Source of the DNA: an uncultured Gemmatimonadales bacterium
GTDB lineage: Bacteria > Gemmatimonadota > Gemmatimonadetes > Longimicrobiales > RSA9
Length of the DNA: 64,000 bases
Reading direction: 5' to 3'
Assembly (NCBI GenBank): GCA_963741945.1
Contig: CAVUKA010000001.1
Location: forward strand, 800,001-864,000
Position numbers and translations under genes: made by a program. Below are positions 23,147-57,771 of the stretch, in pieces (within the stretch, counting starts at the first letter, position 1; each line of letters starts with the position of its first letter). The notes under the pieces were generated by a model. That model saw only the letters and a list, made by a program, of their open reading frames with translations. It was not told the origin of the DNA and searched no databases.

Positions 23147-23256
23147 GCCCTCCGCGTTCTCCGCGCCTTCGCGTGCCCTCCGCGGTTCTTCGTGCCCCCC
23201 GCAGTTCCGCGTGCCCTCCGCGGTTCTTCGTGCCCTCCGCGGCTCTCCGCGCCTCC
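23147..23256. repeat. Intergenic imperfect CTCCGCG/GTGCCCTCCGCGGTTCT repeat cluster
   Basis: Several copies of (G)CCCTCCGCG and CGTGCC units between divergent genes. Confidence 0.6.
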
Positions 23257-23333
23257 CCCCTCGCGCGACGGCGCCCCATGCTGTAGGCTTGCAGACCCGA
23301 CTCGATCCTCGACCCGCCCGATGGAGCCGATGC

Positions 23334-30268: not shown

Positions 30269-31573
30269 ATGCACAGACCACTCGCAGTGTTCGCCCTCGC
30301 GCTCGGCACCCTCGCCGCCGCCGCCCCGCTCGCCCCGCTCTCCGCGCAGCTCGATGCCACGGAGCGGCAGATCTCCACCTACATCCACGACCATGAGGAG
30401 GACGGCATCGACCTGCTCGCCCGCCAGGTCCGGATCGGAAGCGGGACGCAGGACACCGCCGGCATCCGTCGCCTGGCCGGGATGATGACGCCGGTGCTCG
30501 AGGAGCTCGGATTCGACGTGCGCTGGATCCCGGGAGGCGACACCGGGCGCGCCGGCCACCTCGTCGCCGAGCGCACCGGGCCCGTCGGCAAGCGCGTCCT
30601 CCTCATCGGCCACCTGGACACGGCGCTCGAGGGCGAGGGGTGGTTCGAGCGCGACGGGATGACGGCCCGGGGTCCGGGCGTCAACGACATGAAGGGCGGC
30701 AACACGGCCATTCTCATGGCGCTCCGGGCGCTCCACGCCGCGGGCGCGCTCGAAGGCCGCACCATCCGCGTCATCTTCACCGGCGACGAGGAGTCCCCCG
30801 GTGAGCCGCTGGCGAGCGCGAGGGCGCCGCTGGTGGCGCTCGCCGACTCCAGCGACGTGGCGCTGGAGTTCGAGACCGCCATCGCCGGCGACGAGCACGA
30901 CTACGCCAGCACGGCCCGCCGCGGCTCCACCACCTGGCTGCTGGAAGTCGGCGGGAACACCGCCCACTCCTCCGGCATCTTCTCCCCAGGCACCGGCGCG
31001 GGCGCGGTGTTCGAGGCCGCCCGCATCCTGGACACGTTCTACACCGAGCTGAAGGGCGAGCAGTACCTGACGTTCAACCCCGCCGTGATCGTGGGCGGCA
31101 CGGATGTGGAATACCACCCCGAGACCGTGCGTGGCAGCGCGTCGTCCAAGACCAACATCGTGCCGCAGCGCGTGGTGGTACACGGGGGGATCCGGACCAT
31201 AAGCGACGAGCAGCTCGCCAGCGCCCGGCGTCGCATGGAAGCCATCGTCGCCCGGCACCTGCCGGAGACCACCGCCACCATCACGTTCTCCGACGGCTAC
31301 CCCGGCATGCCGCCCACCGCCGGAAACCGGGAGCTGCTGGCGCTCTTCGATCGGGCCAGCCGCGACCTGGGCGAGGGACCGGTGGTGGAGTTCGACCCGG
31401 GCGGACGCGGCGCGTCCGACCTCTCCTTCGCCGCCGGCCACGTGGCCCTCGGCGCCCTGGGCGGGCTCGGCGTCGAAGGCGAGGGCGCGCACACGCCCGA
31501 CGAGGACGTGGACCTCACGTCCCTCGCCAAGTCCGCGGAGCGCGCGGCGCTGCTGATCTACCGGCTCCGGTAG
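30269..31573 (+). CDS. M20/M25/M40 metallopeptidase (carboxypeptidase G2-like), secreted
   Basis: Signal peptide; LIGHLDT, GPGVNDMKGG, TGDEE, GGRGASD, AHTPDE. Confidence 0.9.
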   Translation: MHRPLAVFALALGTLAAAAPLAPLSAQLDATERQISTYIHDHEEDGIDLLARQVRIGSGTQDTAGIRRLAGMMTPVLEELGFDVRWIPGGDTGRAGHLVAERTGPVGKRVLLIGHLDTALEGEGWFERDGMTARGPGVNDMKGGNTAILMALRALHAAGALEGRTIRVIFTGDEESPGEPLASARAPLVALADSSDVALEFETAIAGDEHDYASTARRGSTTWLLEVGGNTAHSSGIFSPGTGAGAVFEAARILDTFYTELKGEQYLTFNPAVIVGGTDVEYHPETVRGSASSKTNIVPQRVVVHGGIRTISDEQLASARRRMEAIVARHLPETTATITFSDGYPGMPPTAGNRELLALFDRASRDLGEGPVVEFDPGGRGASDLSFAAGHVALGALGGLGVEGEGAHTPDEDVDLTSLAKSAERAALLIYRLR

Positions 31574-31580
31574 CCGCCGG

Positions 31581-31714
31581 GGAGGCGCGAAGAGCGCGGA
31601 GGAACACCGTCACGCGGAGGCGCGAAGAGCGCGGAGGAACACCGTCACGCGGAGGCGCGAAGAGCGCGGAGGAACACTGTCACGCGGAGGCGCGAAGAGC
31701 GCGGAGGGACACCG
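31581..31714. repeat. 35-bp tandem repeat, ~3.8 copies
   Basis: Unit GGAGGCGCGAAGAGCGCGGAGGAACACCGTCACGC at 31581, 31616, 31651 and partial at 31686; no spacers. Confidence 0.9.
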
Positions 31715-31785: not shown

Positions 31786-32136
31786 ATGAGCAAGAAGGGG
31801 AAGCGGAAGAAGAAGCGGGCGGAGGAGGGGGCGGCGCCGGAGCCCGCCACCCCTCGCACGCTGCACTCCGCCATCGTCGCCGAGGAGCTGGACCTCCACG
31901 GACTGGGCGCGGACGAGGCCGAGCGGCGGCTTCAGATGTTCCTCGAGCGCATGGCCGCCACGGCGCCCGGCGAGGTGGTGCGGGTGATCACGGGCCGAGG
32001 GCTCGGCTCGCCCGGGCCGCCCATCCTCCAGGGCGTGGTCCGCGACGCCCTGAACGGCTGGCTCGCCCGGCGCGTCGACGACTGGGCCGTGGACGTGGGC
32101 AGCGGCGCGTATCTCGTGCGCGTGAAAGGCCGCTGA
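31786..32136 (+). CDS. Smr/MutS2-domain endonuclease
   Basis: ELDLHGL...EA, VRVITGRG..S, G.GAYLV. Confidence 0.85.
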   Translation: MSKKGKRKKKRAEEGAAPEPATPRTLHSAIVAEELDLHGLGADEAERRLQMFLERMAATAPGEVVRVITGRGLGSPGPPILQGVVRDALNGWLARRVDDWAVDVGSGAYLVRVKGR

Positions 32137-32155
32137 CGACCGGGGTTGGCCGGGC

Positions 32156-32389
32156 GTCGCCCTCGTCGCCCTCGTCGCCCTCGTCGCCCTCGTCGCCCTC
32201 GTCGCCCTCGTCGCCCTCGTCGCCCTCGTCGCCCTCGTCGCCCTCGTCGCCCTCGTCGCCCTCGTCGCCCTCGTCGCCCTCGTCGCCCTCGTCGCCCTCG
32301 TCGCCCTCGTCGCCCTCGTCGCCCTCGTCGCCCTCGTCGCCCTCGTCGCCCTCGTCGCCCTCGTCGCCCTCGTCGCCCTCGTCGCCCTC
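32156..32389. repeat. Perfect 9-bp microsatellite (GTCGCCCTC)x26
   Basis: 234 bp of uninterrupted repeat. Confidence 0.95.
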
Positions 32390-32628
32390 GTGCTGGGCGA
32401 CTCCGTCTCGAACGGCCATGGCCATGCCCCGGAGTCGACCGCACCGTGACGGGGTGCGCGGGAGATCACCCACACGTCGGGCGCGGGATCACGCATGGTT
32501 GAGGAATCGTCATATCCGCCGAGAAGTGCGCATGCGTGGCGGACACGTGGACGGGCGGTGAATCATCCGTGGTATCCACCAAAAAACGCCGCGGCGTCCC
32601 GGCGGGCGTGACTCGGGGGAAATAATCG

Positions 32629-46358: not shown

Positions 46359-46458
46359 CGACGTTTCCAGGTTGGCGACCCGCCACGCCGGGACCTTCAG
46401 CGCGAGACCACCTTCGAACCTGCACTTCCGTCACCAGCTCCAACACGGCCGCGGCGGG
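46359..46458 (-). repeat. Truncated attC-like site (TAAC lost; side arm and second R box missing)
   Basis: ACGTTTCCAGGTTGGCGACCCGCC...CACCTTCGAA...CACCAGCTCCAACACGGCCGCGGCGGG closely matches the copy at 50239. Confidence 0.75.
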
Positions 46459-46762
46459 CCTTTCGACCGCCCCGACTATCACCTTGACTCTGTGGTCGGC
46501 AATGGCAGCTGCCCCATCATCGACGCGAGTGTCTCGGCAACGGCCGCGGGGCTCCTCCTTGCCAGCGGTAGTTCAGCAACCCTGCCCCATTCTGGAGGGT
46601 TCCGAACGGCCAGAACCCACTCTGCATCCCGGGTTCAGCCCCTTTGATACAATGGAGGGGGAAGCCCCTGTTTGTTCTCCGACGTGCGTCGCCTTGTTTC
46701 CCTGATCACTGCCAGCGCTCCCCTCACCCTCTCCGCCAACGAGGGGGCCGCATGCATGGACC

Positions 46763-47584: not shown

Positions 47585-48082
47585 CTACCCTGCTATTCGC
47601 CACCGGGGCAACCACCGCTTCACACGGGCTCGATAGGCCTCGTATTCGCCGCCAAACGTCCGCTCCAGCGTCGGCTCCTCATAGGCGCGGACGAACACAT
47701 GGGCAACCCCAAGGAACAGCAGCGCATACGCTGCCAGGGCGACCGACCTGTAGACCAGCGCTGCCCCGAAGAGAGCCACTACCGCACCCAGGTACATGGG
47801 ATTGCGCACCCACCGATACGGTCCCGACACCACCAGTTGACGAGGAGAATCAAAGGGCGCAGGCGTCCCCCGCCCTACGAACGTAAACGCCAGCACGCAC
47901 CACACGGCAACCACCGCTCCTGCAATCAAGATCATGATCCCCACTGATTCGGCTATGCCTATGGCATCCGGCGGCGTGATCCCCGCCCAGCTCAGCACTC
48001 GAGCCGGAAGAAAGACCAAGAACAGAGCCACAAACAGCGATCCCCAGGTCAGAGTCCGGATCACGACGAAGATCGCATCCAT
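47585..48082 (-). CDS. Isoprenylcysteine carboxyl methyltransferase / PEMT family membrane protein
   Basis: G.GTPAPFD.P..LV.SGPYRWVRNPMYLG, EEP.L...FG..Y..YR..V.RW. Confidence 0.88.
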   Translation of the reverse strand: MDAIFVVIRTLTWGSLFVALFLVFLPARVLSWAGITPPDAIGIAESVGIMILIAGAVVAVWCVLAFTFVGRGTPAPFDSPRQLVVSGPYRWVRNPMYLGAVVALFGAALVYRSVALAAYALLFLGVAHVFVRAYEEPTLERTFGGEYEAYRARVKRWLPRWRIAG

Positions 48083-48182
48083 GCTCTCCCCTCTCTCTTC
48101 TCAGCGCCGATCGAATCCACCGCCTCTCCTCCTCGCCTGGCCCACCACCGCATCAAAGCGACCGCAGGCGCAGGATTATTTC

Positions 48183-48229
48183 GGCTAACATTCCCAGGTT
48201 GGCGACCCGCCGCGCCCAAGCATCCAGCG
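48183..48229 (-). repeat. Half of an attC-like site, fused to the IS110 remnant
   Basis: GGCTAACATTCCCAGGTTGGCGACCCGCCGCGCC...TCCAGCG; similarity stops a few nt before the transposase ATG. Confidence 0.8.
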
Positions 48230-49310
48230 GCGCACCATGCTGCACACGGGGATCGATCTGCATAAGCGCACCTGCGTTCTGGCCACGGTGGACGCCGACG
48301 GCGAAGTCGTGGCCGAAGCGGAGCTCCGAACCCGTCGGGCGGCCATCGCCCGCTACTTCGCGCAGCTCCCGCCGCACCGAGCCACAGTCGAAGCCACCAG
48401 CAGCTGGTACTGGATCCGGGACCTGCTGGAGGCCCACATGATCTCCGCTGAGCTCCGACCGCTCCGCGACGTGATGCGGACCCGGCTCCGCCTGATCCAG
48501 AAAGAGGTCGGGACTCGAAACAGCATTCACCGGCTCCCCGAGAAGCACAACGTTCGCAGTGTCGCGGACCTGCCGCCCATGGCCCAGCTCCAGGCCGCCT
48601 GCCACCGCGAGCAGAGGGAGCTTCTCCGGGAGCACGTCCGCCGACTCGAGAAGAGCCTCCACCCGCACCTGGTGCCTGACCCCGATGTCCAGCGGCTGCT
48701 TGCGATCCCCGGGATCGGCAAGGTCGGCGCCTGGAGGCAAGGACCGGCACCGGCACTCCAGGGACGGCAACAAATACCTGAAGATCGTCTTCTCGAACGC
48801 CGCGGTCCGCGCGATCCAGTACAACCCCGAGATCCGGAGCTGGTACGAACGGAAGGCGCGGAAAAAGAACCGGGCTGTGGCCGGGCTCTCGTCGCGAAGG
48901 AACTCGCTCGTATCGTCTACCATGTCCTCTCGAAGCGGGAGGACTTCAACCATCGCTTCAAAGGCATCCCGCTCCAGCGGCGGAAAAAGCAGGAGTGGCC
49001 ACGTCGGTCAAGCCCGGGCAGCTAACTGGATCGGCTTTCGCCGAGTACCGCCCCGTTTGATTGGGAAGACCGACGTCGAGCCGCCGGACGTATCTGGGAC
49101 CGCTCCGCAGAGCGACCGCTGAAATGAGCAGCGGTGAGCCCGAAATGGTGTTTGGACGCCACTCCACGTCCGATTCGATACCCACTCCGGCCCGGCCAGA
49201 CCTGCCGTCGCTCGCGGAATCGAGAAGCGTCGCACGATCGAAAAGCGAATCAGAATCTCTGATTCCGCAGAGGATCATCGTGCTCCTTGACGAAGGACTT
49301 GTTAATGGTG
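48230..49310 (+). mobile_element. IS110/IS1111-type element remnant with ~285-bp 3' non-coding end
   Basis: Transposase remnant; structured 3' end; outward TTGACG at 49287-49292; junction at 49309-49310 abuts a degenerate R box (TGTCAGGCGG). Confidence 0.65.
48237..49025 (+). pseudogene. IS110-family transposase with internal deletions and frameshifts
   Basis: GIDLHK (DEDD N-terminus), VEAT..WYW, L..IPGIG; GNKYLK..F..AA..A in another frame; A.VA.ELARI.YH.L. Confidence 0.88.
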
Positions 49311-49363
49311 TCAGGCGGTGTCCGCAAATCCAGGCCTTTCGCTCCGCAAACCGCCTCTCGCTC

Positions 49364-49393
49364 TTGAACTGCCGATCCCCTCCTGGGTATCAT
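49364..49393 (+). promoter_or_regulatory. Putative sigma70 promoter of the inverted TA cassette
   Basis: TTGAAC-N18-TATCAT, followed by AAGGAGG and ATG at 49412. Confidence 0.5.
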
Positions 49394-49411
49394 CCGGCCA
49401 AGGAGGATCTC

Positions 49412-49630
49412 ATGACCGAACTACTCAAGAAGGCTTTCGACGAAGCGTCCAAACTCCCCAGCGAGCAGCAGGACGCCATCGCCGCTCTACTCCTGGAGGA
49501 GCTCGAGTCCGATCGAAACTGGGATCGGACCTTTGAAAACTCCCAGGACGACTTGGCGAAGCTCGCGAACGAAGCCCTCGCCGAAGACGCACGAGGTGAG
49601 ACGGAAAACCTCGACCCGTCCAAGCTTTGA
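49412..49630 (+). CDS. Type II antitoxin (72 aa, acidic)
   Basis: MT.LL.KAF.EA.KLP...QD.IA..LLEEL...W...F motif; overlaps the toxin start. Confidence 0.8.
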   Translation: MTELLKKAFDEASKLPSEQQDAIAALLLEELESDRNWDRTFENSQDDLAKLANEALAEDARGETENLDPSKL

Positions 49631-49896
49631 CCTCCCGCACCACTTCATCTTTTCGGAAGGCCTATTCCTCACTTCCTACCGACGTCCAGGAGCGGGCTCG
49701 CGAGGCCTTCGACCTCTTCTCCGCCAATCCGGCTCATCCGAGCCTGCAGTTCAAGCAGGTTCACGCGACCGAGCCGATCTTCTCAGCCCGCATATCGCTC
49801 CACTACAGAGCCTTGGCCCGCCGCGCCGACGATGACTGGATCTGGTTCTGGATCGGCTCACACGCCGACTATGACCAACTCTTGAAGCGCCTGTAG
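49627..49896 (+). CDS. RelE/ParE-superfamily toxin
   Basis: F.K.Y..LP..VQ..AR.AF.LF..NP.HPSL.FK, S.RI...YRAL, WFWIGSHADYD. Confidence 0.85.
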   Translation: MTSRTTSSFRKAYSSLPTDVQERAREAFDLFSANPAHPSLQFKQVHATEPIFSARISLHYRALARRADDDWIWFWIGSHADYDQLLKRL

Positions 49897-51153: not shown

Positions 51154-51700
51154 GAAGCCCCACGGCGATGACCCCTCTTCAAGGCGCCCCGACTAGGCGC
51201 ATGAAAGGACGGAAAGCCGATTGCACCAGACGCCAGTAATACCCAAGGTCATCGGGCGATATCGACCAAGCGATCGTAACGAGTACTCCGATGGCGGTAT
51301 GGACCCAGGTAAACTTGCCTTGGCGCCTGGCTGTTTCTGCAAGGTAGTCTAACCTCCCACTGATGAACTTCTGTTGCTCCTCGCCTAACGAGTAACTTTC
51401 AAACAGTTTGGCCTCAAGTTCTTCAATTGAGTTGCGGATTTCGTCAGCTTCCTCAGCAGAAATCGGAGTGTCCTCAATCTCCTCTCTCGGCGAGAGCGTG
51501 AAGGATTCTTGGTATCTGGCCAGCTCCGTCCAGAGATCGCGGCTTTCCAATTCAAGCTTGAGGCGGTCGGCCCAATTCCAGCACAACTGCTTCTGCCCCT
51601 CCCAAGTTCCATTGTACACTTCTTCGATCCGCTTCTTCTTGTGGGTCCTCTAAACTATGTCGCGGTTTCTCTCTAAACTTTGTCGCGGCAAGGGCGTGAG

Positions 51701-52480
51701 CTAAGCGGCTTCAGAGTCAGGGGCCTCCTCCTGCTTATGGTGGCGGGTGCGGTAGGAGCGGCCGCGGAGCACGAAGTGGGTACCGCGCTCCAGGAGCCGA
51801 TCCAGAATCGCTTCCGCGAGATCGGCATCATGCAGCACCTGACCGAGGGCGGCCAGGGGTTTGTTGGTGGTCACGATCATGGGCCGGTGCTTCAGGTAGC
51901 GATCGTTGACCACCCGGTAGAGTACGTTGGCGGCATCGGCAGCGTAGCTCTGATAACCGAGTTCGTCGATCACCAGCACGTGCGGATGGACGTAGGGCTC
52001 GAGGGCTTCTTCCAGCCGTCCCTCCGCGGCTGCCTTCGAGAGGGCGCCGATCAGCTCGTCTGCGGTGGTGAAGCGGGCGTCGAAGCCGTTCTGGATGGCC
52101 CGATAGGCGATGGCCACGCCCATATGCGTCTTTCCCCGACCGGGCGGCCCCGTGAAGATCGCGGACCGCCCCTCGCTCACGAGCTCCGGCCCCAGCAGCG
52201 TGCCGAGCATCTGAAGGCGGACGCTGGTCTGGAAGGTGAAGTCGAATTCCTCGATGGTGCGGAGGAAGGGAAACTTCGCTTTGCGGACGTATCGGGTGAT
52301 CCGAGTCTGCGCCCGGTGGGCGATCTCCTCGGCGCAGAGTAGCTCGAGAAACGTGCGGTAGCTCATGCCCTCGTCCTCGGCCCGGATCACCAGGTCCGGA
52401 TAGAGGCGTCGGACCGTGGGCAGGTGAAGACGGTGGAGCATCGCATCCAGATCGTCCAGCGGCACGGGAGTGCTGATCAT
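51701..52480 (-). CDS. istB: IS21 helper ATPase IstB
   Basis: GPPGRGKTH Walker A, LVIDELGY Walker B, AILDRLL, G.SYR. Confidence 0.95.
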   Translation of the reverse strand: MISTPVPLDDLDAMLHRLHLPTVRRLYPDLVIRAEDEGMSYRTFLELLCAEEIAHRAQTRITRYVRKAKFPFLRTIEEFDFTFQTSVRLQMLGTLLGPELVSEGRSAIFTGPPGRGKTHMGVAIAYRAIQNGFDARFTTADELIGALSKAAAEGRLEEALEPYVHPHVLVIDELGYQSYAADAANVLYRVVNDRYLKHRPMIVTTNKPLAALGQVLHDADLAEAILDRLLERGTHFVLRGRSYRTRHHKQEEAPDSEAA

Positions 52481-53883
52481 GAGGCCGCCTCCTTCGCCAC
52501 GAGTCCCATCACGTACTCCGCCCCGATCAGGCGCTGAAAGAGCGCTCGCTGGAGCAGCCGGAGGAAACGCTCCTGGCCCACCTCCTCCAGCAGGGCGAAG
52601 AGCCGCTCGACGTCTCCTTTCCAGGTGTAAGGACGAGAGTGGATGAGTTCGGTCAGGTAGCCCTCACCGATGGGCCCCAGCTCCAGGATCCGCTCCCGCA
52701 TGAAGTAGAGGCGCTTCCGGGCGCCGGCCACGGCCGCCAGCTGCTCCGCCCTCTGGCCGGGCAGGTAGCTGGTAGTCCCCACTTTGGGAAAGCGTGGGTG
52801 GGTGGCCTCGAAGCGGGCACCGGTCGTGACGATCCGGACCCGGTCCGGGTACAGGTGCAGCGTGGCCGGAATCCCGCACGCCCCCGCCGGCATAGCGTAG
52901 CGGACTCCCTGGAAATCCACGAGGGCCGTGGGACCCACATGCACGGCGTAGCGCAGCCCGTATTCTGTGGGCGCAATGGCCAGCGGCTTCATGCGGGCCT
53001 GTTCGGTCACGAGCCGGAGCTTTGGGATCTCCTTCGTGGCGCGGGACGGCCGCTCCTCATTCACCCCCAGCAGCCACTCAAGGAGCTGACGGGGGAGGTC
53101 GTGATCGAGATCGGCGAAGCGGCGGGCTCGGAAGAAGCTCCGCTTCACCCAGCCCACAAGATTCTCCACCGAACCCTTCTGCTCGGGACTCCGCACCGCG
53201 CACAGCTCGATGGTGAAGCCGTAGTCGATGGCCACCTGCGCCAGGGTCGAGTTCCAGATCGGCCGGTCGCCGTCCCGGCCCACCACCACGGTCTTCGGAT
53301 TGTCGAAAACTACCCGGAGCGGCACGCCCCCCGAGTGCTCGAAGGCCGCGAGCAGCGCGCGCACCAGCGATTCGATCCGCTCGTCCGGCACGATCACCAC
53401 CCACACCCACCGCGAGTACTTTAGCCGGAAGGCCGCGAAGTGGACCCGCTTCTTCCGCCCGTCCAGCAGCCGGACGTCGGCCTGCCCGAAGTCGAACTGG
53501 GCGAACTCCCCCGCTACCCCCTCGAACCGCACCATCAGCTCCGCCGGCAGCTTCCCCTTCTCCAGCCGAAACACCCGATAGAAGGTGCTCTCGGCGAGCT
53601 GAACTCCTTCGTCACGAAGCAAGCGAAGGTACTCCAGCGGTGGAGCTTCCGGATCCTCCGCGATCAGATCCACCAGCCGCTGCTTCACCGCTGACCTCAC
53701 TGGCGGTCGGCCCACACCACGGCGCCGCCGCTCCGCCACGTCATCCCCGTCCTCTACCAGCGGCTCTTTGGCGATCCGCTGGATCGTCCGCACGGTGACG
53801 CCGAACTGCTCCGCAATCTGCTTCTTCTCTTCCCCCGCCTTCAGCAGAGCATGGACTGCATGTCGATCAATCATCCTGAGCAT
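52477..53883 (-). CDS. istA: IS21 transposase IstA
   Basis: N-terminal HTH; RFE...GE.AQFDFG, GGVP...FDNPK, P.QKG.VE..V. Confidence 0.95.
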   Translation of the reverse strand: MLRMIDRHAVHALLKAGEEKKQIAEQFGVTVRTIQRIAKEPLVEDGDDVAERRRRGVGRPPVRSAVKQRLVDLIAEDPEAPPLEYLRLLRDEGVQLAESTFYRVFRLEKGKLPAELMVRFEGVAGEFAQFDFGQADVRLLDGRKKRVHFAAFRLKYSRWVWVVIVPDERIESLVRALLAAFEHSGGVPLRVVFDNPKTVVVGRDGDRPIWNSTLAQVAIDYGFTIELCAVRSPEQKGSVENLVGWVKRSFFRARRFADLDHDLPRQLLEWLLGVNEERPSRATKEIPKLRLVTEQARMKPLAIAPTEYGLRYAVHVGPTALVDFQGVRYAMPAGACGIPATLHLYPDRVRIVTTGARFEATHPRFPKVGTTSYLPGQRAEQLAAVAGARKRLYFMRERILELGPIGEGYLTELIHSRPYTWKGDVERLFALLEEVGQERFLRLLQRALFQRLIGAEYVMGLVAKEAAS

Positions 53884-54251
53884 CCTCCCCGCCCTCCGAT
53901 TCTCAGAGCCCTGAGCCCTCGGAACGGCGGCATTCTACGCTGTGGATGCCCTCAACTGCGACATAGTTTGGAGAGAATCAGCGACAGAATTTCGGGAACT
54001 CACACTTCTCGCCGGGGCAGAATCGAGCCCAATCTTGGCCCCGGAGGTAGTCAAACTGGAAGTAGAAGTCCGGGTCCGTTTTCAGCACCAAGCGGGACAC
54101 CCTCTGTTCTGAACCGTGGAGACTGGCGACCTCCATCCACTCGAGTCGGGCCGGGTCGAGCCCCGCCCCTTCGACTACCTCGAAAATCTCGTTCTTTCGA
54201 CTAGTTAGAAGAACTTGATTCATCGCACTCCAACGCGTGTGCAGGGGTTTC

Positions 54252-56670: not shown

Positions 56671-57771
56671 TCACGCTGCGTCCAGCGGGTTCACGATCCG
56701 GGTCAGGTCGCCGCGGCTGACGTGGGTATAGATCTGGGTGGTGCGGGGGCTCGTGTGGCCGAGGAGCTCCTGGATGTGGCGGAGGTTGACGCCGGCCTCC
56801 AGGAGGTGGGTGGCGAAGCTGTGGCGGAGGGTGTGCACGGTGGCGTGCTTGCGTACGCCGGACCGGGCCAGGGCGCGCTCGAAGATCTTCTGCACGGACC
56901 GCGTGGTCAGATGGCGGCCGGGCCGGCCCCCGGGGAAGATCCAGTCGTCGGCGTGGAGGCGGGCAACGACGGGCTCGAGGGCGGCGGCCGCGGCATCGGC
57001 CAGCAGCGTGTAGCGGTCCTTCCTCCCCTTCCCTGCGCGGACACGGACCAGCCCTCGTCCGGAATCCACGTCGCCGACCCTGAGGCGTACCACCTCGCTG
57101 ACGCGGAGGCCGGCGGAGTACGCCAGTATCAGGGCCAGACGGTGCGTCGGGTTGGCGGGGGCGTCGAGGATGCGGCGCACTTCGTCGCGGGAGAGGACGG
57201 CGGGGAGCTGGCGCTCCCGCTTCGGGCGGCGGATCGGGTCCAGCGCGAGCGGGCGGCCGACGAGCCGCGCCAGGAGCCGGATGGCGCTGATCGCCTGGTG
57301 CTGGTAGGAGGTCGACCGGTCGTCGGCCTCGAGCCGGAGCAGGTGAGCGCGGACGTGCTCCGTCGACAGCTCGGTCGCGGCCTTCGGGAAAGCTTCGAAG
57401 AACCGACGGACGTGGCCGACGTAGTTCGTCCGCGTACGGGGGCCGTAGCCCTGGAGCCGGAGCTCTTCCGAGAGGCGCTGGAGGAGCGCCGCCGCCGGAT
57501 CGGTGCCGTTCGCCCGGCGAAACGGGACGCGGACCAGGTGCATGAGACCGGGGTCGACGCGGAAGCTCGCGTCGGGCGCCCGGAGCAGCGCGTTCAGCGC
57601 CTCCTCGGTGCGCGGCAGCAGCCACGCCGATCGGCCGGGGTCCCAGTGCCGGCCTGGGATCGAGCGGACGTGCCCGACCAGCCCCGCGTCATAGGGGAAC
57701 CGGACTTCGATCCGCGTTTCCGCGTCCATGAGCCAAACAGAGGTCGCCATGACCGAGTCTGAACCGGCCAC
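56671..57771 (-). CDS. Integron-integrase-like tyrosine recombinase lacking the IntI insertion, with an extra N-terminal HARP-like domain
   Basis: Intact catalytic residues: GLRVSE, GKGRKDR, HTLRHSFATHLL, LLGH, TQIYTHV; SAM-like core-binding domain (LRLQGYGPRT..NY, STSYQHQA.SAI); start may be 57729-57771. Confidence 0.9.
   Translation of the reverse strand: MAGSDSVMATSVWLMDAETRIEVRFPYDAGLVGHVRSIPGRHWDPGRSAWLLPRTEEALNALLRAPDASFRVDPGLMHLVRVPFRRANGTDPAAALLQRLSEELRLQGYGPRTRTNYVGHVRRFFEAFPKAATELSTEHVRAHLLRLEADDRSTSYQHQAISAIRLLARLVGRPLALDPIRRPKRERQLPAVLSRDEVRRILDAPANPTHRLALILAYSAGLRVSEVVRLRVGDVDSGRGLVRVRAGKGRKDRYTLLADAAAAALEPVVARLHADDWIFPGGRPGRHLTTRSVQKIFERALARSGVRKHATVHTLRHSFATHLLEAGVNLRHIQELLGHTSPRTTQIYTHVSRGDLTRIVNPLDAA

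Follow-up and report, generated by a model that had tools for sequence, protein, structure and literature searches.

A Probable Dead Copy of an attC-Targeting-Type IS1111 Insertion Sequence, with a Predicted Guide RNA Fitting the Cassette Sites of Its Host

Introduction

In insertion sequences (ISs) of the IS1111 family the transposase gene is followed by a long non-coding region. By the account of Siddiquee et al. (2024, PMC11187229), this region gives rise to a seekRNA, which the transposase binds and without which the element does not move. In the seekRNA a match to the top strand of the target lies 5′ of a match to the bottom strand, and the RNA is reprogrammable. The same source names ISKpn4, ISPst6 and ISPa25 as IS1111 elements that target attC, and describes other members that target repetitive extragenic palindromes (REPs). 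Elements of the IS1111-attC kind are reported to be inserted close to the 5′ end of attC and in antisense orientation relative to the array (PMC3001079), and a group ISPa21/ISPst6 has been recognized among them (Tetu & Holmes 2008; Post & Hall 2009; as cited in PMC3001079 and PMC11616780). According to Durrant et al. (2024, PMC11208160), for 93% of IS1111 members a bridge RNA is predicted in the right end, the donor-binding nucleotides often fall in a multi-loop, and the long subterminal repeats may be read by protein. Orphan copies of the small-RNA gene of an IS110-family element have been reported for ISPpu9 (PMC12288879). We have analyzed a locus of this kind in 64,000 nucleotides (nt) of DNA from an uncultured Gemmatimonadales bacterium, the whole of which we call the window. 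The segment 48237-49310 is, with a probability that we put at roughly 0.9, a dead copy of an IS1111-family IS of the attC-targeting type, with a guide RNA that fits the cassette sites of its host. The kind of system is already known, and the element belongs to a divergent clade.

The IS1111-attC elements of Pseudomonas integrons have been described as going through a cycle of infection and extinction. The ISPa21/ISPst6 group is said to have been described as one monophyletic, Pseudomonas-centred subset, and Tetu and Holmes reportedly noted, in 2008, degenerate IS footprints at array termini. Our literature search found no paper on IS1111 elements in the phyla considered here; the supplementary tables of two papers of 2024 may list relatives.

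Results

A Decayed IS within One Repeat

The first half of a repeat, the remains of the IS and the start of the next cassette follow one another in the window as listed.

48179-48236, no strand assigned: first ~58 nt of an att repeat (families D5 and D6, alignment), abutting the transposase ATG at 48237
48237-49025, + strand: IS1111-family DEDD transposase pseudogene (NF033542, 60.9 bits; BLASTP against P0002; blastn against L011)
48427-48428, + strand: junction of a 129-bp internal deletion (L011 IS positions 258-386 gone)
48733-48756, + strand: second internal deletion, with 24 nt in place of L011 IS positions 692-810
49304-49310, + strand: right terminal extension AATGG and core TG, the right end of the IS (TG at 49309-49310; blastn to L011 stops at 49310)
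49311-49318, no strand assigned: right flank TCAGGCGG, what remains of the att site beyond the interruption, followed by the beginning of the next cassette

The segment 48237-49310 is a decayed IS1111-family IS lying within one attC-like repeat. The NF033542 model that its gene matches is that of the IS110 family RNA-guided transposase; PF01548 and PF02371 are found below threshold. The extent of the decay can be read from two intact relatives, the 338-amino-acid (aa) protein P0002 and the element L011, which is 1361 bp long, lies in a metagenome-assembled genome (MAG) labelled Gemmatimonadota and has a protein 86% identical. Compared with P0002, the window gene lacks residues 66-108, with the KVKTD..D stretch of the catalytic domain, and residues ~210-242, with the catalytic-serine motif L-P----SG; residues ~243-290 lie in another frame, and the last 48 residues are identical. 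In blastn the window copy corresponds to L011 IS positions 63-257, 387-691 and 811-1361. At the 48179 site the remainder of the repeat is deleted together with the left end of the IS, which is 62 nt long in relatives. Deletions after the landing removed the left end of the copy along with ~100 nt of the att site, as well as two segments of the transposase gene, and frame shifts were gained. The first-pass annotation had noted the split att site and the missing left end, both of which we find; the two internal deletions and the frame shifts come in addition.

The last 554 nt (48757-49310) have fared differently. They are collinear with L011 positions 811-1361 at 81% identity, so that the whole non-coding region, 285 nt from the stop codon (49025) to the IS end (49310), is kept together with the right end and all of the conserved motifs of the 3′ region. 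As read from its sequence, the window copy is incapable of moving or of making transposase, and has an RNA gene and a right end of full length.

Contigs from four metagenomic DNA runs were used for checks of the junctions only, and the parts that they leave uncovered are uninformative. A contig of 557 nt spans 47900-48258 with one difference; it may derive from the genome's own sample. The junction of the att half with the ATG is therefore no artefact of this assembly alone. The sequence missing at the first deletion is present in metagenome contigs as loose ends at 48428, and loose ends at 48727 in three runs continue into the sequence missing at the second.

A Second Copy Shows the Insertion Point

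A DNA search of the window's genome found one further copy, at G000:C1:350733-351679, which is also decayed and has kept both junctions. Its left junction reads ..GGCGCTCACCGTTTG followed by ATCTTACCAACAAGTCC.., and its right junction ..GGACTTGTTAATGGTG followed by TTAAGTGAC. The copy lies in a repeat of the same family, between CCGTT-TG and TTA (...CACCGTT-TG, the IS, then TTAAG), and intact repeats read ..CCAACCGTT-TG-TTAYC. Insertion after CCGTT at the TG core of these same repeats, as had been proposed from the window alone, is what this copy shows.

The two copies are identical through ..CTTGTTAATGGTGT, which includes AATGGTGT, and then read CAGGCGG and TAAGTGA, respectively. Because they diverge right after 49311, we place the right end of the window element at 49310. 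The second copy has 62 nt of left end before its ATG, as does L011. It corresponds to L011 positions 1-792 and 1213-1361, having lost the 3′ RNA region, and it carries the sequence RLVPGAANSGG, an instance of the GL-P----S(T)G motif that P0002 also has and that is deleted from the window copy. Its protein is 99% identical to P0002. No intact transposase of this IS clade was found in the genome, which holds two other IS110-family genes.

Relatives Share the Target and the Ends

A protein search gave 3191 matches at E ≤ 0.001, and most of the best 120 are 338 aa long. In a scan of one genome per species 216 loci, confirmed by tblastn, encode a relative; 79 were fetched, and 61 were usable after exclusion of those for which no ends were called (5), those judged by hand to have poor ends (6), those with short flanks (3) and those with no anchor (4). 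The calling of the ends relied solely on how well the subterminal repeats complement each other and on a TTG at 24 nt from the right end. The 61 elements are 1298-1454 bp long, and intact relatives encode 338 aa with both PF01548 and PF02371 (precomputed annotations). Their hosts are MAGs labelled Gemmatimonadota, Rubricoccaceae, Ignavibacteria and Neomarinimicrobiota. In the metagenome collection the search turned up no relative exceeding 64% identity.

The insertion point is fixed, with the core on one side and TTA on the other, at 53 of the 61 loci, where the right flank begins with TTA. The flanks read TTAGGC, TTATAC or TTATGC, and with the G of the core they give GTTRRRY, the pattern of the attC R box. 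Open reading frames (ORFs) within 2.5 kb run mainly opposite to the transposase in 32 of the 34 low-GC loci (29,463 versus 6,298 codons). If the cassettes are taken as read on the opposite strand, the IS lies at the 5′ (R'') arm, antisense to the array.

Two features lie next to the right end of the element.

49287-49292, + strand: TTGACG, the -35 box of a predicted circle-junction promoter, starting 24 nt before the IS end
49295-49303, + strand: right subterminal inverted repeat GGACTTGTT, pairing with AACAAGTCC in the left end of the second copy

The element ends are those first proposed, with relatives sharing both the subterminal repeats and TTGAC at 24 nt from the right end. The perfect subterminal repeat is 9 bp (AACAAGTCC and GGACTTGTT), compared with 11-13 bp given for the IS1111 family, and relatives match at 7-11 of 11 positions. 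TTGAC is found at this distance in 55 of the 61 relatives, where end-calling had demanded TTG only, and the -10 box formed at the circle junction would read GATATT in 39 of the 61. These sequences are consistent with a promoter assembled across the circle junction.

Segments of the 3′ Region Covary with Target and Donor

All relatives have a common layout downstream of the gene. It runs ..YCTAAC-UGG, a hairpin H1, a variable segment of 7-8 nt joined to AUUGGGAAG, a variable part, AUCU-GGG, one or two hairpins, CCC, a second variable segment of 7-8 nt joined to U(U/G)UGG, and a hairpin H4. Four segments of the window copy are predicted guides or candidates for them.

49053-49059, + strand: left-target guide with core, CCGTT-TG, copying the left flank in sense orientation; it would pair with the bottom strand
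49144-49150, + strand: left-donor guide with core, AATGG-TG, copying in sense orientation the right end of the IS at 49304-49310
49019-49026, + strand: CAGCTAAC, candidate guide for the right target, which is antisense to G+TTAGCTG and shares nucleotides with the last codon and the TAA stop
49060-49068, + strand: conserved AUUGGGAAG, with complementarity to the left end of the IS, which reads CTTACCAA in the second copy

The first two had been picked out by the first-pass annotation, as CCGTTTG at 49053-49059, equal to the left junction of the second copy, and as AATGGTGT at 49144-49151, found again at 49304-49311. These coordinates are correct, and the chance expectation is low. In shuffles of the whole window CCGTTTG is expected 5.61 times, and AATGGTGT 0.53 times, per 128,000 strand positions; scaled to 278 nt of one strand, the values are ~0.012 and ~0.0012. 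Both segments keep their positions in homologues, where the first covaries with the left flank and the second with the right end of the IS.

The covariation was assessed by permutation. The left flank agrees with the left-target guide at a mean of 5.31 of 8 positions over the 61 loci, compared with 3.75 when permuted, a value not reached in any of 10000 permutations (0/10000). An excess is also present within GC strata: 4.00 against 2.02 of 6 in the high-GC loci (n = 27), and 3.29 against 2.81 in the low-GC loci (n = 34). Within the window's own genome, the guide matches 6 of the 11 free att sites at 7/7 positions and 9 of them at ≥6/7. For the donor guide, agreement with the IS right end is 6.41 of 8 against 4.57 permuted (n = 58; 0/10000 permutations), and the last 7 nt are identical to the right end in 40 of the 58.

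The first-pass annotation had seen no clear right-hand guides; this has to be revised, as a candidate for the right target overlaps the stop codon of the transposase. Its pairing partner would be the right flank's top strand (the attC R box), and its position is kept in the alignment (..CTAACTGG). Agreement with the right flank is 5.34 of 8 against 4.87 permuted (61 loci; 1/10000 permutations), which makes it the weaker of the two target guides, and the candidate predicts ≥5/7 positions at 9 of the genome's 11 free att sites. For the right donor, the conserved AUUGGGAAG, in which TGGG is invariant in 46 sequences, is a possible guide; it may instead be a structural or protein-binding element. 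A right-donor guide upstream of AUCUGGG was also looked for by eye, and was rejected with only scattered matches to show.

Many of the Ignavibacteria copies (L040, L045, L054, L065, L084, L088, L089 and others) have guides that give a GG core where the left junction reads TG. The right junction of such copies sometimes reads TG as well, and the pair of cores is TG/GG in 8 of the 61 loci. The first base of the core therefore seems to tolerate a mismatch, and junctions can inherit different cores.

Predicted RNA Structures around the Guides

Three structures are predicted around the guides.

49031-49044, + strand: hairpin H1, UCGGC-UUUC-GCCGA, between the two target guides
49096-49141, + strand: multi-branch element H3, in which GGG (49096-98) pairs with CCC (49139-41) around two hairpins
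49154-49171, + strand: hairpin H4, GGACG-CCACUCCA-CGUCC, after the donor guide

H1 forms at least 5 bp in 87% of 46 members, with differing sequences (mean z = -2.1), H3 forms in 91% (segment-fold mean z = -2.0), and H4 has at least 5 bp in 98% (mean z = -1.4). The third pair of H3 (RNAalifold pairs 162-164/238-240) is GC in 31 members and is changed on both sides in 15 (AU in 13, UA in 1, UG in 1). RNAalifold on the MAFFT alignment gave 6 pairs only, because the variable hairpins align badly; a GCC/GGU helix that it proposed conflicts with a local hairpin in some members and is distrusted. Each of the two guides first seen had been said to be followed by a small hairpin. This is so for the donor guide, where the GGACG/CGTCC hairpin (49154-49171) is conserved, and not in general for the left-target guide, after which at least 5 bp can form in only 50% of members. 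A match to the Rfam family c4-a1b1 in 47900-49700 (searched at E up to 10) reached 16.4 bits against 46.7, and was taken for chance.

The Repeat Array and Its Cassettes

The repeats of the window array are ~165 nt long, and on the + strand begin ..RTAACGTTTCCAGGTTGGCGACC.. and finish ..GGCGCCAACCGTTTGTTAYC.

46352, 48179, 49909, 50235, 50999, 54248, 55004, 55586: starts of the repeat copies (repeat families and alignment)

In each repeat, folded as a single strand, outer boxes TAAC/GTTA and inner boxes GGTTGGCG/CGCCAACC are paired. AttC sites are marked by paired boxes, R''/L'' and L'/R', and by arrays of one orientation whose repeats delimit the cassettes, and these repeats have both marks. 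The intervals hold small ORF sets, among them a ParE-like pair (toxin-antitoxin) and flavodoxin-like, PEMT-like and PRiA4_ORF3 genes, and 6 of the 7 ORF-bearing intervals in the window have - strand ORFs, opposite to the transposase. In a repeat search the att family was confined to two arrays of the genome. The second (G000:C1:350718-356303) has about six sites, and the second decayed copy of the IS lies in the first of them. The repeat occupied is thus the first or the second in either array, at the distal end, away from the recombinase side.

At the end of the window array, and pointing toward it, lies a gene for a 366-aa tyrosine recombinase (56671-57771, - strand), whose best matches are integron integrases (TIGR02249; PDB 2a3v, IntI4). 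It has a 95-aa N-terminal extension. Two canonical intI genes are found elsewhere in the genome, at G000:C1:1401601-1402308 and G000:C6:4028-4888 (328 bits, and 361 bits summed). Among the relatives, an integron integrase was found near the IS in 2 of the 5 genomes tested: L054 (Ignavibacteriales) has a canonical one (417.7 bits) ~10 kb from the IS, and L049 (Gemmatimonadales) a split one, covering model positions 3-315, at ~3 kb. The split, full-coverage IntI of L049 has the same position and orientation relative to the array as 56671-57771. Integrons are on record for Gemmatimonadota and Bacteroidota, according to PMC8618304.

Several other features were seen in and around the array. Overlapping ORFs of 259 and 468 aa at 51701-53883 (- strand) resemble IS21 IstB/IstA, as judged by eye from their translations; they lie inside the cassette interval 51162-54247, which a second kind of IS would thus have colonised. 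The leftmost repeat, att46, loses its similarity to the family after ~100 nt (46440-46510). A string TTGAC..AATGG with the spacing of the IS right end was considered there as an older IS footprint; no flank or repeat supports it, and it may be chance. The sole match to a sigma-70-like promoter in 47900-49500 is at 49364-49393 (+ strand; TTGAAC, 18 nt, TATCAT), just upstream of a + strand toxin-antitoxin pair (49412-49896), and a cassette in reverse orientation may thus carry its own promoter. Tandem repeats unrelated to the IS occur at 32092-32451 (9-nt period, ~28 or more registers), 31543-31714 (35 nt, 4 copies) and 23159-23257 (19 nt, 4 copies).

Discussion

Evidence on Both Sides

A number of results weigh against our interpretation. 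The IS ends at 49310 with TG, and the right flank of the window copy reads G-TCAGGC where intact repeats have G-TTA, and because of this difference the second R box is assigned by position and not by sequence. The same flank (TCAGGCG) agrees with the predicted right target at 4/7 positions; right flanks beginning with TC also occur beside the relatives L026 and L087. The left terminal extension measures 8 nt and the right one, with the core counted in, 7 nt, compared with published values of 7 and 3, so that either the geometry differs from that of published IS1111 elements or the core is assigned differently. The excess for the right-target guide is small and comes largely from one clade (Rubrivirga-type, TTCTAC versus AGAA). 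A replicate in the metagenomes began from 46 loci, of which 34 were processed and 16 were usable after removal of 3 duplicates; one clade dominates this set, which has little power. In it the right-flank signal was not reproduced (4.69 against 4.96), the left guide was weak (5.00 against 4.44; 141/10000 permutations), and the donor guide was invariant and gave no signal. The permutations themselves overstate independence for any signal at the level of clades, because relatives inherit guide and host together. AUUGGGAAG agrees with the left end at 6.26 of 8 positions with wobble, compared with 6.21 permuted (383/5000), and shows no covariation. Rfam has no family at gathering score in the window, and none in intact L011. 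Among the RNA runs listed, none was found to contain the stretch. The remaining contrary points concern the repeats. The array-end recombinase scores 208 bits against the TIGR02249 cut-off of 265, aligns with IntI4 in two stretches and lacks ~40 residues of the IntI-specific segment (model positions 180-234), and the window array therefore has no adjacent integrase with that segment; 'attC' is for this reason not proven here. The bottom-strand fold of the repeat is unexceptional (z = -1.29).

We consider it unlikely that the repeats are not integron attC sites at all and are some other structured repeat, REP-like or a site for an Xer-like recombinase, which would make this IS one of a different target class. 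The recombinase and the fold just described would suit such repeats. So would their length of ~165 nt, beyond the usual size range of attC, and the position of the arrays, neither of which adjoins the two canonical intI genes. No array of the window type was found beside those integrases with exact 11-mers, a search that leaves other attC types possible there. IS1111 members do also target REPs (PMC11187229). Against this stand the same-oriented arrays bounding small ORF sets that include toxin-antitoxin pairs, the paired R and L boxes (TAAC..GGTTGGCG and CGCCAACC..GTTA), the GTTRRRY pattern formed by the relatives' right flanks with the core G, and the relatives lying 3-10 kb from integron integrases. 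We call the window repeats attC-like rather than attC. The first-pass annotation had proposed an RNA-guided IS programmed against a novel att family; the covariation of the guides supports the first part, and the second gives way to a known class of target, since the repeats behave like integron attC.

A second alternative holds that the RNA gene of the dead copy has been retained for a function, either to serve a transposase in trans or to pair with attC arms and so hinder cassette recombination. We regard this as very unlikely. It would explain why the 3′ region is of full length, collinear with L011 and complete in its conserved motifs when the coding part has three deletions, and orphan small-RNA gene copies have a precedent in ISPpu9 (PMC12288879). 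The genome, however, has no intact transposase of this clade to serve, and no promoter-like site was found upstream of the RNA gene on the + strand in the scan of 47900-49500. Retention is also not consistent, because the other copy has lost exactly the RNA region, and that one segment should survive a few random deletions is unremarkable.

That the transposase protein chooses the target, for example by reading a folded attC arm or the subterminal repeats, the RNA-like matches being due to descent or chance, is very unlikely. In its favour, the matches are short (7-8 nt), conserved attC arms set a high baseline (permuted means of 3.75-4.87 of 8), the metagenome replicate lacks the right-flank signal and long IS1111 subterminal repeats may be protein-read (PMC11208160). 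Against it, the covariation of guide and flank far exceeds that of permuted pairs, within GC strata too, and insertions that arose independently (such as L017, L021, L023, L026 and L019) have exact 7-mers in common; the seekRNA is reported from experiment to be essential and reprogrammable in IS1111 (PMC11187229).

A Working Model

Our preferred reading, that of an RNA-guided attC-targeting element, leads to the following model, drawn from published relatives. A live element would excise as a circle, and its joined ends would build a promoter, TTGACN, 17 nt, GATNTT. From this promoter the DEDD/serine transposase would be expressed together with the ~290-nt 3′ region, which would give the seekRNA (bridge RNA). 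The 5′ module of the RNA would carry two target guides around H1, one antisense to the right flank and one a sense copy of the left flank with TG, and jointly these would read both strands of one attC-like arm. The downstream module would present the donor guide, a sense copy of the IS right end and core. The complex of transposase and RNA would then recombine circle and target at the shared core, so that ..CCGTT-TG would precede the IS and TTA.. follow it, with the IS in antisense orientation to the cassettes.

One might go further and combine three proposals: that a deep and separate lineage of attC-hunting IS1111 elements exists in Gemmatimonadota, Rhodothermia-like bacteria and Ignavibacteria, that its right-target guide lies in the last codon and TAA, and that transcription of the RNA gene in the dead copy may continue, giving an RNA that pairs with attC, serving a transposase in trans or hindering cassette recombination. 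Taken jointly, these are quite unlikely to hold.

For this genome the finding is an ordinary one, a dead IS that splits one cassette site, in line with the cycle of infection and extinction. Its wider interest is that natural insertions alone show the seekRNA logic proven for a few proteobacterial IS1111 elements to extend to a distant clade, which colonises cassette arrays in the chromosomes of bacteria from soil and sediment. The 61 pairs of guide and target are a natural reprogramming series, and intact relatives of the L011 and P0002 type are candidates for new RNA-guided recombinases.

Comparison with Known Systems

IS621, of the IS110 group (PMC11208160), is described as having one RNA with separate target and donor segments, each site being recognized through both of its strands about a core dinucleotide common to the two sites, and the element analyzed here resembles it in these respects. 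It differs from that description in having its RNA at the 3′ and not the 5′ end, in the reversed order of the top- and bottom-strand guides, and in the position of the donor guide, which follows a multi-branch element and does not lie in a simple internal loop. In the present element the left-donor guide is supported, and the right-donor guide is only a candidate.

The closest likeness is to ISKpn4, ISPst6 and ISPa25, with which the comparison was made by description. Shared with them are the transposase of ~338 aa with its L-P----SG motif, the downstream non-coding region, the subterminal inverted repeats, the -35 box in the right end for a circle-junction promoter and a target at one end of attC; as in the published account (PMC11187229), a top-strand segment lies 5′ of a bottom-strand segment and both overlap at the insertion point. 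The hosts here are not Gammaproteobacteria, the window copy is dead, and its RNA is predicted from the DNA. The one plasmid match examined as a possible known attC-targeting IS (H12) does not lie in an integron. Since protein identity is ≤33% to any homologue on the 72,556 plasmids of PLSDB, the clade is unlikely to belong to the monophyletic ISPa21/ISPst6 group. It resembles that group in where it is found, the occupied repeats lying at the distal end of their arrays as the degenerate footprints reportedly do. Its members nevertheless have the marks of IS1111, a DEDD protein of 330-350 aa with PF01548 and PF02371, the GL-P----S(T)G motif and the downstream non-coding region, and that of the IS1111-attC elements, insertion in antisense orientation to the cassettes at a fixed point close to where attC begins on its 5′ side. 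The element fits the published attC-targeting IS1111 elements on every point tested except the length of the terminal extensions.

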